Shown here one piece after another: positions 53,236-59,199 of a stretch of 61,778 nucleotides of DNA. The notes beneath the pieces are model-generated. The model was not told where the DNA came from and made no database searches. It was given only the letters and a program-made list of their open reading frames with translations. Origin of the DNA: an uncultured Candidatus Saccharibacteria bacterium (GTDB taxonomy: Bacteria; Patescibacteriota; Saccharimonadia; CAILAD01; JADZBC01); assembly GCA_964496815.1 (NCBI GenBank), contig CAZCAO010000003.1, forward strand, positions 1 through 61,778, given 5' to 3'. The position numbers were made by a program, and so were the translations under genes. The first letter of the stretch is position 1, and each line of letters begins with the position of its first letter.

Positions 53236-56052
53236 ATGGCTGATAAAATCGTCATTAAGGGTGCTCGCGAGCACAACCTCAAAAACATAGACCTCGAAAT
53301 ACCCCGCGATAAACTGGTGGTGATTACGGGTCTCTCCGGCTCCGGAAAATCCTCACTTGCCTTTGATACTATCTATGCTGAAGGTCAGCGCCGGTATGTC
53401 GAGAGCTTGAGTGCCTATGCCAGGCAGTTCCTTGGCTTGATGGAAAAGCCCGACGTTGATCAAATCGAGGGCTTGAGCCCAGCTATTTCGATCGACCAGA
53501 AGTCAAGTTCGCGTAATCCACGTTCGACCGTAGCCACGGTAACGGAAATATACGACTACCTACGTTTGCTTTTCGCGCGCATTGGTGTGCCGCATGATCC
53601 CACTACCGGCGAGGTCTTAACCAAGCAAACTCCAGCCCAGATTGTTGATTCGATTCGTCAGTACCCCAAAGGAACCAAGATCGTTATTTTAGCTCCAATC
53701 GTGAAGGACAAAAAGGGCGAGCATCGGCATTTGCTTAGCGAAATCCAAAAAGCTGGCTATTCGCGGGTACGCCTAAATGGCACTCTCATGCCGATTGACG
53801 AAGTTCCAGAGCTTGACCGCCAGAAGAAGCACACCATTGAGGTGGCAGTGGATCGTATGACGCTCGACCCCGAAGAGCCACAGCAAAGATTGGTGGAATC
53901 AGTTGAGCAGGCGCTGCACTTGGGTGAAGGTGTTATTACTGTGCAGGATCATGACACGGGCGAAGAGCGAGTCTTTAGCGAACACTACACTACTGCTGAC
54001 TCGGGCTTTTCATTACCCGAAATCGAGCCAAGGCTGTTTTCATTTAACTCCCCACACGGAGCTTGTCCGAAGTGTACAGGGCTCGGCTCATTACTTATTG
54101 TTGACCCCGATATGGTGATTCCAAATCGCCGCTTGAGTGTTGTGGAGGGCGCTATTCGGCCGTGGAGCCGTACGACTTCGCGCATGACGTGGTATACCAA
54201 GCTGCTCGAGGCTGTGGCAGAGAAGCACAAGTTCAAACTCGACGTTCCGGTCGAAAAACTCAGTCCAAAGGAGATAGAAATTCTACTCTACGGCACGGGT
54301 GATGAGGAGATTGGTGTACGTGGTCCGGGCGGCCGAACCTATAAGACGACGTTCGAAGGTATTATCCCGAACTTGGAGCGACGCTATCGTGAGAGCGACA
54401 GTGACTTTGTCAAAAAAGAAATTGAGCGCTACATGACTACCCAGGAGTGTCAGGAATGTCATGGCAAGCGACTCAAGCCAGAGGTTTTAGCTATCACGGT
54501 GAACGATAAATCGATTGCCGACCTAACTGACATGGCAGTCGAGGATGCGCTTAAAACGTTTTCTGGTCTAGAGCTCAATGCCCAGGAAAAGCAAATCGCT
54601 GCACAGATTCTCAAAGAGATTAGTGAGCGGCTCAAGTTCCTTAACGATGTAGGCCTGAACTACCTTACATTGAATAGAAGTGCAAATACCTTGGCTGGAG
54701 GTGAGGCACAACGTATTCGTTTGGCTACGCAGATTGGTTCGAGCCTAATGGGTGTGCTCTACATTCTCGACGAGCCATCGATTGGACTGCATCAGCGCGA
54801 CAATGACCGTTTGATCAGTACGCTGCAGCGTTTGCGTGACCTGGGCAATACCGTGATTGTGGTAGAACACGACGAAGACACTATTCGCGCCAGTGACTTT
54901 GTAGTCGACATTGGTCCACTCGCTGGTGAGCATGGCGGCGAGGTGATAGCTATTGGTACTCCTGATGAAGTCGCCAAGAGTAAAGATTCTTTGACCGGTC
55001 AGTATTTGAGTGGGACTAAGAAGATCGAGGTGCCCAAGCAGCGCCGCAAGCCGACCGACAAAAAGCTACGCATCGTGGGCGCAACCGAAAACAACCTCAA
55101 GGACGTATCGGTTGATATCCCGCTTGGCATTATGACGGTTGTAACAGGCGTGTCCGGTTCTGGTAAGTCATCACTGATTAATGACATCTTGGCGCGCAAG
55201 CTAAGCCAGGAATACCACCGTGCGCAGGAGCCAGCTGGCAAGCACCAAGAGATTCTAGGCACAGAGCATTTGGATAAAGTTATCGACATCAACCAGTCGC
55301 CAATTGGCCGTACGCCGCGCTCTAATCCTGCCACCTACACAGGAGCCTTTACCGACATCCGTGATTTGTTCGCCATGGTGCCGGAAGCCAAGATTCGTGG
55401 CTATAGCTCTGGTCGATTTAGCTTTAATGTAAAAGGTGGCCGCTGTGAGACCTGTAAAGGTGACGGTATAATCAAGATCGAAATGCACTTTTTGCCTGAC
55501 GTGTATGTGACATGCGAGACGTGCCATGGCAAGCGCTATAATCGTGAAGCACTCGAGATTCTGTATAAGGGCAAAACGATTGCCGATGTCCTAGAGATGA
55601 CGGTAGATGACGCTTGTGACTTCTTTGGTAACATCCCAGCCGTATACCGTAAGCTTGAAACGCTGCGCAGCGTTGGCTTGGGCTATATTCGATTAGGGCA
55701 ATCTGCCACCACGCTCTCAGGCGGGGAGGCGCAGCGCATTAAGCTGGCAAGTGAGCTGTCCAAGCGGGCTACTGGCCGAACCCTCTACATTTTGGACGAG
55801 CCAACCACTGGATTGCACTTTGAAGACGTCAAGAAGTTGCTCGAAGTACTCAACGCGCTTGTAACCATGGGCAATTCGATGCTGATCATCGAACACAACC
55901 TAGACGTTGTGAAGTGTGCCGATTGGTTGATCGATCTAGGCCCCGAGGGCGGAAGCGGCGGCGGCATGGTGATTGCCGAGGGCACACCAGAGCAGGTCGC
56001 CAAGGTGGATAAATCTCACACCGGCCAATACTTACAGAAGCTGCTTAAATAG
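53236..56052 (+). CDS. uvrA: Excinuclease ABC subunit A
   Basis: Two ABC cassettes ([25 protein letters not shown] twice), zinc fingers CPKC/CQEC, CETC twice. Confidence 0.98.
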
Positions 56053-56072
56053 AACTTGCGTACTTAAAACAG

Positions 56073-56100
56073 AAACACCACTCGTTCTGAGTGGTGTTTT
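56073..56100 (+). terminator. Bidirectional terminator after uvrA
   Basis: AAACACCACTC-GTTCT-GAGTGGTGTTT. Confidence 0.85.
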
Positions 56101-56106
56101 CGTAAT

Positions 56107-56188
56107 CCCGACCTAAACCTAGACGGTGTCTAAACTTGGGTCGGGGCCGGAGGTACGAAGCGTCGTTGCTTCTTGGTGTACCTCCGGC
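56107..56188 (-). other. Two abutting long hairpins 3' of the GC-rich ORF
   Basis: 56146-56188 (11+5 bp, loop AACGAC on minus) and 56107-56145 (about 17 bp, three G-U pairs on minus). Confidence 0.7.
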
Positions 56189-56195
56189 GAGCCGA

Positions 56196-56966
56196 CTACT
56201 TCTTCTTGCCGTGCTTCGGCGGCTCCTGCCCCTTGGGCTGCTGCATCCGGGCGCGGATGGCCCGGTCGCGAGCCGACTTCTCGGCCTTGCGCGGGTCCTT
56301 GCCCTTGCCCCGACGGCCACCGTCGCTCCCGGAGGAGCTGCGGTGGATGTTCGTCAGGTGCTTGGCCACACCCCGGAGCTGTCCGATGTGGACGCTCTTG
56401 CCCTTGCCGGCGAGGATCTTGTCGATCGCGCGCTGGCTGTCGGGGCGGAGGTTGCTCCAGCCGACGATGACACCCATGAAGTACGAGTCCTCGATCAGGG
56501 GCTTGATCTCGGCGATCAGCTGCTCCTTCTCGGTCTCCTCGGCCTCCTTGACGTCGAGCTCGGCGATGACCCGCTCGAGGACCGCGTTGCGGGCCTCGGT
56601 GCGGGTGCGGCTGGCCTCCTTCAGCTCGGCCACGAGTGCCTTGCGGATGTCCTCTCGGACGAAGGCCTTCCACAGCGCCGTCTGCACGGTGCCGTTCAGC
56701 CACAGCCGGTTCAGGCGCCCCAGGGCGCTCTGAGCCGACTTCTCCTGCTTCAGCTGCTCGCGCAGCTGGAAGAGGTTCTTCGTGGCCTGCGGGTGGGTCC
56801 CGAACAGGTGCTTGGCCGCCTCGGCCGTCTCCGACCAGGCCAGGGCCTCGTCGACGGTCTGGAACCGGACGCCACCGGCGATGGCGATGATGATCGCCTC
56901 CTTGGCGGTGTCGGTCGCGGTGATCGCGAGGGTGGACTGGGACTGGATGTCTTCGGTGGTGGCCAT
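56196..56966 (-). CDS. Hypothetical helical protein with basic C-tail, very GC-rich
   Basis: 256 aa from MATTEDIQ; CAGGAGAG SD; G/C-ending codons; hand-counted lines 65-75% GC. Confidence 0.8.
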   Translation of the reverse strand: MATTEDIQSQSTLAITATDTAKEAIIIAIAGGVRFQTVDEALAWSETAEAAKHLFGTHPQATKNLFQLREQLKQEKSAQSALGRLNRLWLNGTVQTALWKAFVREDIRKALVAELKEASRTRTEARNAVLERVIAELDVKEAEETEKEQLIAEIKPLIEDSYFMGVIVGWSNLRPDSQRAIDKILAGKGKSVHIGQLRGVAKHLTNIHRSSSGSDGGRRGKGKDPRKAEKSARDRAIRARMQQPKGQEPPKHGKKK

Positions 56967-57007
56967 GCGGCTCTCCTGTGAGTCTTTGGATTGGATTTCC
57001 GCTGGCA

Positions 57008-57076
57008 GACTCTTGGCCAGTACGGATAGCCGCAAAGCAAGGGGGCTGCTTCACAGGTATCCGCAGACCAAGAGTC
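57008..57076 (-). promoter_or_regulatory. 69-nt, 30-bp hairpin in the 5' UTR
   Basis: 11+8+11 bp with CCCCC loop; G-U pairs work only on the minus strand. Confidence 0.7.
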
Positions 57077-57149
57077 AATAGTCACTAACAAATAAGTAGT
57101 CGGTTGTAAATGTGCACTCAAGGTTGTAACAACGTTGAGCGTGATAAGT

Positions 57150-57178
57150 ATGATAGCACAGATAGAATAAAATGTCAA
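57150..57178 (-). promoter_or_regulatory. Near-consensus promoter TTGACA-17-TATCAT with extended TG
   Basis: Plus-strand TGTCAA 57173-57178 and ATGATA 57150-57155. Confidence 0.75.
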
Positions 57179-57203
57179 TACTCTATGACAAAAATATATT
57201 AAC

Positions 57204-57246
57204 AAAAGGGAAGGGGTCGCAGCAACCTGATGGTTACTGCGACCCC
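57204..57246 (-). terminator. Terminator after the 57247 ORF
   Basis: GGGGTCGCAGTAACC-ATCA-GGTTGCTGCGACCCC followed by TTCCCTTTT (minus strand). Confidence 0.8.
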
Positions 57247-57582
57247 TTAGGGCCGCTCGAGTGGCTTGGTGTTGTGTTCGGCGGCAATCTGACGCAGGAT
57301 GCGCTCGCGCTCATGTCCGCCGTTGTCTTCGACGCTCCCCAGCGATCGTTGTACGAGCAGCGAGAACAGCTCTTCATTCAACTTGGGGCCGAAGGTGTGA
57401 ACCCCCTGGTCGTAGAGGGCTGCGATGTGAGCCTCTGCATCAAGGAGCTCCCATGGCCGTTCGTCACTTGGTTCTGCACCTGCGTGCATCTCGGTAGCTT
57501 CAAGCATCTCGCGCTGGGCTACCAGGATGTCGATCAGCGTGAGTGCCAACTGCGGCACCAGGCTGTCGTGCTGGTCGCGCAA
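57247..57582 (-). CDS. Hypothetical protein, GC-rich; may start at ATC 57624
   Basis: Open frame between promoter TTGCAT-17-TATAAT and a terminator directly after the stop. Confidence 0.65.
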   Translation of the reverse strand: MRDQHDSLVPQLALTLIDILVAQREMLEATEMHAGAEPSDERPWELLDAEAHIAALYDQGVHTFGPKLNEELFSLLVQRSLGSVEDNGGHERERILRQIAAEHNTKPLERP

Positions 57583-57729
57583 GGCATGTTGCAGTTGGGC
57601 TGTAAGGGACTTTTGGGTAAGGATTTTGGCCTCCAGGGCTCGGACTGACGGGACAAATAGATTATAGACCTCGGCAAATAGTTATGCAATGCATATTAGA
57701 ATCTAGCAATAGTTGTTATAATGTTACGG

Positions 57730-59199
57730 ATGAATCAACATCTCAAAGAAAAACTTAAACAACTCCCGATGAACCCCGGGGTGTATCTATATAAAGATGT
57801 GCAGGGAAATATTATCTACATCGGTAAGGCATCTATCTTAAAGCGCAGGGTGTCTTCGTATTTTAAAAAAAAGCACCAAGATACGAAAACCCCAATATTG
57901 GTTGAAAACATCGCGGATGTTGATTGGATCGTAACGAGCTCAGAGATCGAGGCGTTGTTTTTGGAATCCGAGCTCGTTAAGCGACATAAGCCGCTCTATA
58001 ACGTAGAATTGCGAGATGATAAAAACTTCCTATATATCAAAGTTACGACCCAAGAAGACTTCCCCAGAGTTAGCTATGTGCGTAGGCCGCAGGATGACAA
58101 GGCGACGTATTTTGGCCCATTCATATCTGGCGGCAGTGTGCGTTCTGCTATGCGCTACTTGCGTAGGATATTTCCGTACATTACCGACGCTGCTTGGCCC
58201 AGGGTAAGTGCCCTACAGCACCAGATTGGTGTTTCACCACCACCAGACATTAGCTCGGCGGACTATCGGGCGAATCTACGCAAGCTGATGATGATATTGC
58301 GAGGTAACAGTACGAAGCTTATTCGCGAGATAGAGCGTGCCATGAAGCAGGCGTCAAAAGCCAATCGGTTTGAAGAAGCAGCCAAACTACGCGATCAGTA
58401 TTTAGCACTGCTATCGTTGTCGCAAAAGAGTGTGTTTGGCAAAGAAGAGACCTTTGATTTAACACTGGACCAGGCCCTTAATGGTTTGAGCGATAGGTTT
58501 GGCTTAACTGGTCCACCGAAGCGCATTGAGGCCTATGACATATCGAACTTTGCGGGTGGTGATGCAGTAAGTAGTATGATCGTGTTTACCAATGGCCTGC
58601 CCGATCAGCGTGAATACCGCCATTTTAAAATGCGTACCAAAGGTCCAAATGATTTTGCTATGATGGCGGAGACGATGCGACGACGCTTTAGCGGCAAGCA
58701 TGATTGGCCTAAGCCGGATCTTATACTGATTGACGGCGGCAAAGGTCAGCTTTCGGCCGCGAGTGAGGTGCTCGAAGAACTCGGCGTAAACATACCGCGC
58801 TTTGGATTGGCCAAGAGGCACGAAGAGGTTGTGCGAATTAAGGATCAGGTATCTAGTAGGGCAATCATAAAGCCACAAGAAGACGATGAGCTACTGGAGG
58901 AAGAAGTATTTACTACCTTGCGCATACAGCACAGTTCACCGTCCCTTCAGCTATTACAGCGCGTGCGCGATGAGGCACATCGGTTTGCGGTAAGTTACCA
59001 CACACATCTGCGGGATAAGCGCACCAAGACATCGCTATTGGATGGCATACCTGGTGTCGGCCCTGTGACGCGCCGTAAACTAGTGCGTAGTTTTGGCAGT
59101 GTGACCGGGGTTCGTCAGGCGTCTGTAGAGGAATTACGAGTCATCGTTGGTGCAAAGGCCGAGCTGGTTTTCGAAGCCATTCACAGTCAGGAAAGTTAA
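57730..59199 (+). CDS. uvrC: Excinuclease ABC subunit C
   Basis: GIY-YIG (PGVY, YIGKA, LE..L.K...P.YN), YDISN, LILIDGGKGQ, RDEAHRFA, HhH; start 7 nt after TATAAT. Confidence 0.96.
   Translation: MNQHLKEKLKQLPMNPGVYLYKDVQGNIIYIGKASILKRRVSSYFKKKHQDTKTPILVENIADVDWIVTSSEIEALFLESELVKRHKPLYNVELRDDKNFLYIKVTTQEDFPRVSYVRRPQDDKATYFGPFISGGSVRSAMRYLRRIFPYITDAAWPRVSALQHQIGVSPPPDISSADYRANLRKLMMILRGNSTKLIREIERAMKQASKANRFEEAAKLRDQYLALLSLSQKSVFGKEETFDLTLDQALNGLSDRFGLTGPPKRIEAYDISNFAGGDAVSSMIVFTNGLPDQREYRHFKMRTKGPNDFAMMAETMRRRFSGKHDWPKPDLILIDGGKGQLSAASEVLEELGVNIPRFGLAKRHEEVVRIKDQVSSRAIIKPQEDDELLEEEVFTTLRIQHSSPSLQLLQRVRDEAHRFAVSYHTHLRDKRTKTSLLDGIPGVGPVTRRKLVRSFGSVTGVRQASVEELRVIVGAKAELVFEAIHSQES

Follow-up and report, generated by a model that had tools for sequence, protein, structure and literature searches.

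Stem-loops at the 5′ end of a message, as in the leaders of E. coli ompA and B. subtilis aprE/ermC, and stem-loops at its 3′ end, as in the terminators of the Bacillus thuringiensis cry genes, prolong the life of the messenger RNA (mRNA); in these cases a single element acts on an ordinary coding sequence (CDS). Pairing between the two ends of a message has also been described. In the B. subtilis hbs mRNA, a 14-nucleotide (nt) leader segment pairs with its full complement just upstream of the terminator, restrains cleavage by ribonuclease (RNase) Y, and stabilizes the transcript (Braun, Durand and Condon, 2017; PMC5737220). The hok mRNA is likewise compact and stable at full length, with a covarying 5′–3′ end pairing that indirectly locks the ribosome-binding site of a peptide of about 50 amino acids (aa), and is accompanied by the antisense RNA Sok (PMC9841398). 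In S. aureus icaR, the 3′ untranslated region (UTR) pairs with the Shine-Dalgarno (SD) region within its own 5′ UTR to give double-stranded RNA, and the outcome is negative: initiation is blocked and RNase III decay is triggered (PMC3868564). Here we analyze a 61,778-nt stretch of DNA (hereinafter the window; contig CAZCAO010000003.1, assembly GCA_964496815.1) from an uncultured Candidatus Saccharibacteria bacterium, in which a gene for a 256-aa protein (P0001; minus strand, 56196–56966; stop codon UAG) is enclosed by long hairpins. All features of this gene given below are on the minus strand. We consider it probable, with moderate confidence, that the gene belongs to a native unit limited to one order of Saccharibacteria, the mRNA of which would be built as a closed, nuclease-resistant structure.

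The unit appears from its sequence to be a single gene with its own promoter, leader, 3′ hairpins, and terminator, and the two ends of its predicted mRNA are complementary. The linker between the two leader hairpins holds a 5′ box, CCGACUACUU (57103–57094), which is complementary to a 3′ box in the stop-codon region, AAGUAGUCGG (56192–56201), spanning the UAG at 56198–56196. In the minimum free energy (MFE) fold of the full-length window mRNA all 10 of the 10 pairs are formed, with a mean pair probability of 0.988, and the end helix extends to about 21 base pairs (bp) if G-U pairs are included (57103 to about 57080). The boxes were paired in the MFE structures of each of the six full-length mRNAs folded (mean pair probability 0.98–0.995). 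Moreover, the pairing has been retained through a compensatory change: in the L003-type unit the boxes read CCAACUACUU and AAGUAGUUGG, such that the CCGAC.../...GUCGG of the window's genus has become CCAAC.../...GUUGG, a G-C to A-U replacement.

The sister families f2 and f4 display the same topology with a longer helix. Their leader segment GACAAAACGUUUGGAA, which again separates hairpins 1 and 2, complements UUCCAAACGUUUUGUC exactly, the latter lying just before the terminator; the match is perfect over 14–16 nt, and in four of the six units none of 300 shuffles was as good. The boxes themselves vary in concert, with all five genomes of one genus pairing an ...AAAGUG... variant with ...CACUUU..., and two further genomes pairing ...GGU with ACC.... 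Across 13 units of the sister families 93.8% of the cells pair, versus 30–50% with a slid partner; three pairs have changed on both sides (A-U/G-C, C-G/U-A, and A-U/U-A), and the covariation score was matched by none of 500 shuffles. In each of 12 genomes of the order, a single forward box is joined in cis by a single reverse box 1.0–1.9 kb away, and the two are always of the matching variant; the 341 genomes scanned outside the order yielded box singletons only, at the control rate. We also considered the boxes as a palindromic operator and rejected this, as the G047-type variant breaks the palindromic core and leaves the 5′/3′ complementarity intact.

The frame around the gene recurs in all 15 units examined, which fall into three families and reach down to about 25% protein identity. 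Its order is invariant: an AT-rich upstream stretch, TTGACA, an extended –10 element, a hairpin at the 5′ end, a linker, a long hairpin, the SD sequence, an open reading frame (ORF) rich in G and C at third codon positions (high GC3), 3′ hairpins, and a terminator. The base of the long leader hairpin can be written GGUCUyCGG...CCGrAGACC across the 15 units. This frame is better conserved than its protein cargo. Between the window and G003, a genome of the same genus, nucleotide identity is 88% in the promoter, 83% in the 5′ UTR, and 90% in the 3′ UTR, versus 37% amino acid identity for the protein of the unit; the neighboring uvrA is 91.5% identical in amino acids and 51% identical at third codon positions. 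The divergence of the unit in this pair starts at the start and stop codons and not at the boxes. In other genomes, the frame carries ORFs of 106–475 aa that lie below detection by protein profiles.

The distribution of the protein is narrow in every collection searched. Only two relatives were found among 5.8 billion proteins, and a profile search of 1.84 billion cluster representatives gave 10 matches; of 401 genomes of the class, 16 have a match, all of them in one order of Saccharibacteria. Copies with 85% identity are present in two public records. A metagenome scan with protein patterns gave no confirmed match, and 14-mer DNA scans of metagenome and viral collections gave chance single matches and no real unit. 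Within the source genome the hairpin region occurs once, and the protein tail and the boxes likewise occur once per genome. At the L003 locus, where the protein is 35% identical, both this gene and a small neighboring orphan gene lie between uvrC and uvrA, and the promoter type, the hairpins, and the high GC are retained. Only the small gene stands between uvrA and uvrC in G006, of the same genus, and in G007, of the sister genus. G006 nevertheless retains a decayed version of the promoter (AAAGTATTGGCC...TGTATTAT compared with AGAGTATTGACA...TGCTATCAT), which abuts the uvrA stop codon (AAAGTATTGGCC...TATTAT); the gene was therefore deleted there and not inserted in the window. On these comparisons the unit appears native and vertically inherited with loss, and neither foreign nor mobile. 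As a separate observation, the G005 contig (L034, C39) ends exactly at the 3′ end of uvrA, where the unit would start, so some of the absences in draft genomes may be assembly breaks at a hairpin-rich GC island.

The coding region is as distinctive as its ends. GC at the three codon positions of the CDS is 0.64/0.44/0.96 (GC3 0.957), compared with a GC3 of 0.51 ± 0.085 for ORFs of the genome, and total GC across the CDS is 65–70% against a background of about 49%. The high GC ends exactly at the start and stop codons, with 45–50% GC in the UTRs and flanks. Homologues with 25–37% identity have a GC3 of 0.87–0.96, except for one genus group with 0.60–0.74. Since the elevated GC is confined to the CDS and persists despite saturated synonymous sites, some directional force acting on the coding RNA maintains it. 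Nor does it follow the codon usage that highly expressed genes of the lineage normally show, because groEL adjoining related units has a GC3 of only 0.42–0.46. In four units the native CDS folds more stably than synonymous-codon shuffles (z = –4.5 for the window, and –2.5, –6.5, and –5.4 for the others), with none of 40 shuffles as stable in any of them, an excess that is suggestive rather than decisive. The simplest reading that unites these observations on GC is that selection has favored a compact message with few AU-rich single-stranded stretches. The gene is not alone in its composition: about 16 ORFs of the 381-kb assembly (6 contigs, 52% complete) have a GC3 of at least 0.78 with ordinary flanks, on C1 (60.7–61.6 and 144–159 kb), C4 (7.2–8.4 and 38.5–45.7 kb), and C6 (13.8–14.3 kb), and the 256-aa gene is therefore the extreme of a class. 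All of these stretches lie outside the window. Two of the ORFs, C1:60697–61074 and C4:7257–7658 of G000 (both minus strand), also have perfect leader/3′ UTR complements of 14–17 nt, with none of 200 shuffles as good.

The leader elements that enclose the 5′ box were largely anticipated by the preliminary description of this region, a reading of its letters and ORFs that had listed a near-consensus promoter, a 5′ UTR of about 175 nt with a short hairpin and a 69-nt hairpin of 30 bp with six G-U pairs, two abutting hairpins after the stop codon, a GC-rich gene for a helical protein with a K/R-rich tail, and rnc in the window; each of these was recovered here. The promoter (57150–57191) matches the consensus at 11 of 12 positions plus the TG extension, with TTGACA (–35) at 57178–57173, a 17-nt spacer, and the extended –10 TG-n-TATCAT at 57158–57150, and an equivalent type precedes every unit of the family. 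Transcription is predicted to start near 57143, giving a leader of about 177 nt. About 2 nt from this predicted start, and hence 5′-terminal, is hairpin 1 (57115–57141), an 11-bp stem-loop of –8.5 kcal/mol; a hairpin occupies this position in all 15 units folded. Beside the promoter we also noted an inverted repeat, TGTCA-N8-TGACA (57173–57191), which overlaps the –35 element in an AT-rich stretch; every unit of the window's genus keeps it, as do G046, G052, and G053 from another family, and plain AT-rich sequence takes its place in other units. It may serve as an operator or be no more than an UP element.

Hairpin 2 (57008–57076) has 30 bp in 69 nt, including the six G-U pairs. Its folding energy is –41.6 kcal/mol (z = –8.0) for the coding strand and –27.2 for the opposite one, a far weaker fold that makes it strand-specific. 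Its six G-U pairs, a 1-nt interruption, and a 2-nt bulge are all kept in close relatives, and its 3′ arm, CCGUACUGGCCAAGRGUC, is conserved genus-wide; the L003 hairpin combines the same 3′ arm with a different 5′ arm in another register, which gives a perfect 21-bp helix. Downstream lies the translation initiation region (56964–57007), with a conserved UGCCAGCGG motif, the SD sequence AGGAGAG (56977–56971), and the AUG (56966–56964); the SD/AUG region is partly inside a local stem in the predicted fold. The whole 5′ UTR has a fold z-score of –6.3, with none of 200 shuffles equally stable. A further feature of this region is that GAGUC (57008–57012) can pair either with the GACUC at the 5′ foot of hairpin 2 (57072–57076) or with a second GACUC (56981–56985) about 15 nt upstream of the SD sequence. 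Both helices covary, with GGGUC facing GACCC in G003 and L003, which hints at an alternative conformation close to the ribosome-binding site.

At the other end, two abutting hairpins follow the stop codon. The base of hairpin a (56146–56188), GCCGG/CCGGC, is conserved, and its inner stem occurs in three different complementary versions among homologues; hairpin b (56107–56145) has 17 bp including G-U pairs and is conserved in sequence genus-wide. Together they fold at –47.5 kcal/mol (z = –8.0). The opposite strand is equally stable at –48.9 kcal/mol, such that the strand specificity claimed for the hairpins in the preliminary description holds for the long 5′ hairpin and fails for the 3′ pair. 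The entire 3′ UTR has a fold z-score of –7.5 (none of 200 shuffles equally stable). It closes with an intrinsic terminator (56063–56099) that had not been listed earlier; this comprises a third hairpin (56099–56073) with an 11-bp stem and a U tract, and is bidirectional and common to the convergent uvrA. Loss of the hairpins among homologues had been named in advance as grounds against the proposals made for this gene; they are conserved in every homologue found. Of those proposals, a highly stabilized mRNA is the best supported, through the hairpin conservation, the 5′-terminal hairpin, the covarying end pairing, and the CDS fold.

These elements suggest how the message might escape decay. 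In decay of the B. subtilis type, a 5′-terminal hairpin blocks RNase J and 5′-end sensing, structured GC-rich RNA offers few sites to RNase Y, and 3′ hairpins block 3′ exonucleases. The near-consensus promoter of the unit would give a transcript beginning with a 5′-terminal hairpin, the leader segment of which would then pair with the 3′ end, over 10 bp (to about 21) across the stop codon in the window and over 14–16 bp before the terminator in the other families. The 30-bp leader hairpin, the nearly uninterrupted run of codons ending in G or C, the two long 3′ hairpins, and the terminator would complete the closure. Such a message would leave no single-stranded end or AU-rich stretch for RNase J, RNase Y, or 3′ exonucleases and would be long-lived, and its high GC3 would be a maintained property of the RNA and not a trace of foreign origin. 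As the 3′ partner covers the stop codon in the window's genus, terminating ribosomes would open the closure, which would therefore be tied to the untranslated state.

The likeness to hbs extends to several particulars. In both, leader hairpins are followed by a pairing segment, the organism is one with RNase Y and RNase J, and, if our guess about the protein is right, the product is a basic nucleic-acid-binding protein, which in hbs is small. The sister-family units are the closest in topology, with the 14–16-nt box between hairpins 1 and 2 and its partner ahead of the terminator. All seven near-complete genomes of the family have matches to RNase Y and RNase J that exceed the curated cut-off. 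The traits by which we would recognize an hbs-type message, namely a leader/3′-end complement of at least about 10–14 nt, compensatory changes, and the RNase Y/J machinery, were all found in silico. Several differences stand beside these: in the window's genus the stop codon is where the 3′ partner lies; a 30-bp leader hairpin, a pair of long 3′ hairpins, and a CDS with 96% GC3 come on top; and the frame of the unit is order-wide with an almost wholly changed protein. There is no sequence or protein homology to hbs. Relative to icaR, which the unit resembles in that the 3′ end pairs with its own 5′ UTR in an organism with RNase III, the leader segment that pairs is some 120 nt upstream of the SD sequence, and the pairing looks protective. 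Relative to ompA, aprE/ermC, and cry, the individual elements are here combined with end pairing and a recoded, structured CDS. Each device is known singly; in a limited literature search we did not find described their combination with a 96% GC3 CDS and an order-wide frame of changing cargo.

Several points weigh against a closed, stabilized message. In the window's genus, the 10-nt complement alone is not significant (score 10 against a control mean of 9); the pairing there rests on the conserved position, the one compensatory change, and the thermodynamic prediction. Only two or three evolutionary events lie behind the compensatory changes of the other families. The excess folding of the CDS is not unique, as control genes of the same genome have synonymous-shuffle z-scores of –0.1 to –3.2. 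Extensive structure in the CDS could moreover slow translation, in which case greater stability need not give more protein. The window's own assembly, which is 52% complete, yielded neither RNase Y nor RNase J. In silico analysis and comparison show the anatomy and that it is conserved, the complementarity together with its compensatory changes, a vertical inheritance accompanied by loss, and a GC3 that has been maintained; the transcription start, the stability, and the processing are predictions, and we infer the transcription, the half-life of the RNA, the RNases blocked, and the role of the protein.

The same anatomy can be read differently. Hairpin 2 or the end helix might mainly be an RNase III cleavage site, comparable to the stems on either side of rRNA or to the icaR duplex, through which the message is activated or destroyed. 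The length of hairpin 2, at 30 bp, meets the roughly two helical turns involved, its L003 counterpart is a perfect 21-bp helix, and rnc is indeed in the window (near 17.9 kb, an ORF with an ERLEFLGD motif). G-U pairs, interruptions, and bulges often weaken RNase III cleavage, however, and those of hairpin 2 are all kept in close relatives; the end helix, for its part, has only 10–16 bp, and nothing favors RNase III over RNase Y or RNase J. Although the duplex between the icaR 5′ and 3′ UTRs is a proven RNase III substrate (PMC3868564), we regard a dedicated maturation unit as unlikely here, and note that it would be compatible with a stabilized message. Less probable still is a hok-like message, in which the full-length, end-paired mRNA would be stable yet untranslatable until trimmed at its 3′ end. 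Covarying 5′–3′ end pairing is a hallmark of the hok mRNA (tac/fbi; PMC9841398), and the strong promoter, the compact and highly structured mRNA, and the AUG lying partly inside a local stem would all fit. Yet the product is a soluble, helical protein of 256 aa and not a small membrane peptide, and PADLOC, Pfam, and NCBIfam gave no toxin matches. Nor did a consensus scan, our only means here, find a plus-strand promoter reading into the leader, from which an antisense RNA could arise as in hok; the sole plus-strand matches (9/12) coincide with the promoter or lie upstream of it, and they face away from the leader. Finally, in all four units compared in silico, the predicted unpaired probability of the SD/AUG did not change when the 3′ box was removed, on which ground we rejected a translational lock, and G006 has lost the gene from an otherwise unchanged locus. 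The tightly repressed, toxin-like gene of the preliminary description is disfavored by the same soluble product, lack of an antisense promoter in the scan, unchanged accessibility, and loss in a sister genome.

Two further readings concern the DNA and not the RNA. The hairpins or boxes might be the single-stranded DNA ends of a transposon, invertase or integrase sites, or operator pairs of a mobile or exchangeable cassette, as the preliminary description had partly proposed. The boxes are inverted repeats around an ORF, the ORF within the conserved frame is highly variable (106–475 aa), its distribution is patchy, and its locus differs by family (uvrA-uvrC or groEL-pgi). Against this, there is one copy per genome, and no transposase, integrase, or invertase adjoins the window locus or the related loci examined. 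The promoter, hairpin 1, and the terminator are conserved outside the repeats, which are therefore not the ends of an element; the start and stop codons, and not the boxes, are where divergence sets in; and the orientation relative to the promoter is the same in all units found. On the opposite strand the long leader hairpin loses 14 kcal/mol of stability, and the G047-type boxes lose their palindromic core and keep their complementarity. The further copies of the hairpins and the empty sites that would betray mobility of the IS200/IS605, MITE, or integron-cassette kind were sought: the hairpin region matched once in the genome, and the apparent empty site of G006 keeps the decayed promoter, the signature of a deletion, leading us to reject a mobile element with a clean empty site. 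With synteny retained at 35% protein identity, we hold a mobile cassette to be very improbable. The remaining reading is a recent import whose composition has yet to ameliorate, the donor being of high GC, for example an actinobacterial host or its phage; this would explain the sharp island of 65–70% GC against the 49% of the genome. Actinobacteria are the hosts on which cultured Saccharibacteria live, and we take the codon usage of the gene to resemble that of high-GC Actinobacteria. This reading is largely refuted, and we give it hardly any weight: the relatives (10 cluster representatives in 1.84 billion) are confined to one Saccharibacteria order, the high GC is limited to the span from start to stop, a GC3 of 0.87–0.96 is kept in syntenic homologues of 25–37% identity with saturated synonymous sites, and neither a phage family (PHROGs) nor a match in BFVD was found.

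The protein itself is fast-evolving and without a known relative. An AlphaFold2 model from a 13-sequence alignment is all-helical, with eleven helices (predicted local distance difference test [pLDDT] 85, predicted template modeling score [pTM] 0.68), in agreement with the earlier suggestion of a helical protein; the helical domain is followed by a disordered Gly/Ser linker and then by a predicted basic helix (residues 225–241). This C-terminal, Arg/Lys-rich helix (GKGKDPRKAEKSARDRAIRARM...KKK) belongs to the sole widely shared segment of the protein, the tail G+G+.P+KA.K.ARD+.IRA.M..PKGQKP. Scans of the 256-aa protein against Pfam, PHROGs, PADLOC, and NCBIfam returned sub-threshold noise only, a profile search against PDB sequences found nothing, and Foldseek, which had been proposed as a check, found no relative of the model (best E = 0.69 in PDB and 0.83 in BFVD). 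At the RNA level, neither the region nor the window as a whole nor 15 related loci gave a match to a known Rfam family, the hammerhead ribozymes among them. The earlier label of an orphan thus holds as regards known families and gives way to the relatives found in the one Saccharibacteria order. We tried and rejected a multi-copy effector family with a shared C-terminal signal, as the tail occurs once per genome. By composition only, we take the tail to be similar to arginine-rich RNA-binding peptides and to the basic tails of ribosome-rescue factors, and our guess is that the protein is most likely a nucleic-acid binder. One could go further and envisage a self-contained ribonucleoprotein, in which the Arg-rich helix binds the hairpins or end helix of its own mRNA, the GC3-rich message, in the codon dialect of high-GC Actinobacteria, is delivered to and translated in the host, and the variable N-terminal domain is engaged in an arms race; we attach very little probability to this scenario.

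The surroundings of the unit offer few functional clues. It is convergent with uvrA (plus strand, 53236–56052) on one side, and uvrC (plus strand, 57721–59199) lies on the other. Two minus-strand genes are found between them, the 256-aa gene and a 111-aa orphan ORF (57582–57247; GC3 0.71) that lies toward uvrC and has its own terminator (57211–57248). Scans of the latter against Pfam, PHROGs, PADLOC, and NCBIfam gave sub-threshold noise only and no family match. It is not part of the unit, because G006 and G007 lack the large gene and still have this one between uvrA and uvrC. Long ORFs of up to 319 aa overlap the gene at 56119–57081 in other frames and on the plus strand. We rejected these as genes: a GC3 near 1 leaves the matching reverse frame without stop codons, and the overlapping ORFs are therefore by-products of composition. 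The locus of the unit differs by family, being uvrA-uvrC here and groEL-pgi elsewhere. In families f2 and f4 (L286 = G047:C1:36000–52000, L287, and L288), the unit lies between groES-groEL and pgi, accompanied by further GC3-rich orphans, none of which gave a Pfam match; one of them codes for a conserved protein, about 140 aa long, that carries the motif RAQPLALLN..V..NPEPW. The neighbors of related units in three other genomes are also orphans and provide no functional hint.

If the proposal of a closed, nuclease-resistant message is correct, the unit would be a natural mRNA in which all the known stabilizing devices, namely a 5′-terminal hairpin, 5′/3′ pairing, long UTR hairpins, and a recoded, structured CDS, are combined and kept by selection. 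It would also supply a testable reason, selection at the level of RNA, for the GC-rich orphans of mid- and low-GC Saccharibacteria genomes, which are usually ascribed to horizontal transfer from actinobacterial hosts. A frame that outlasts its cargo would then mark a locus under unusual selection in an epibiotic lineage with reduced genomes.

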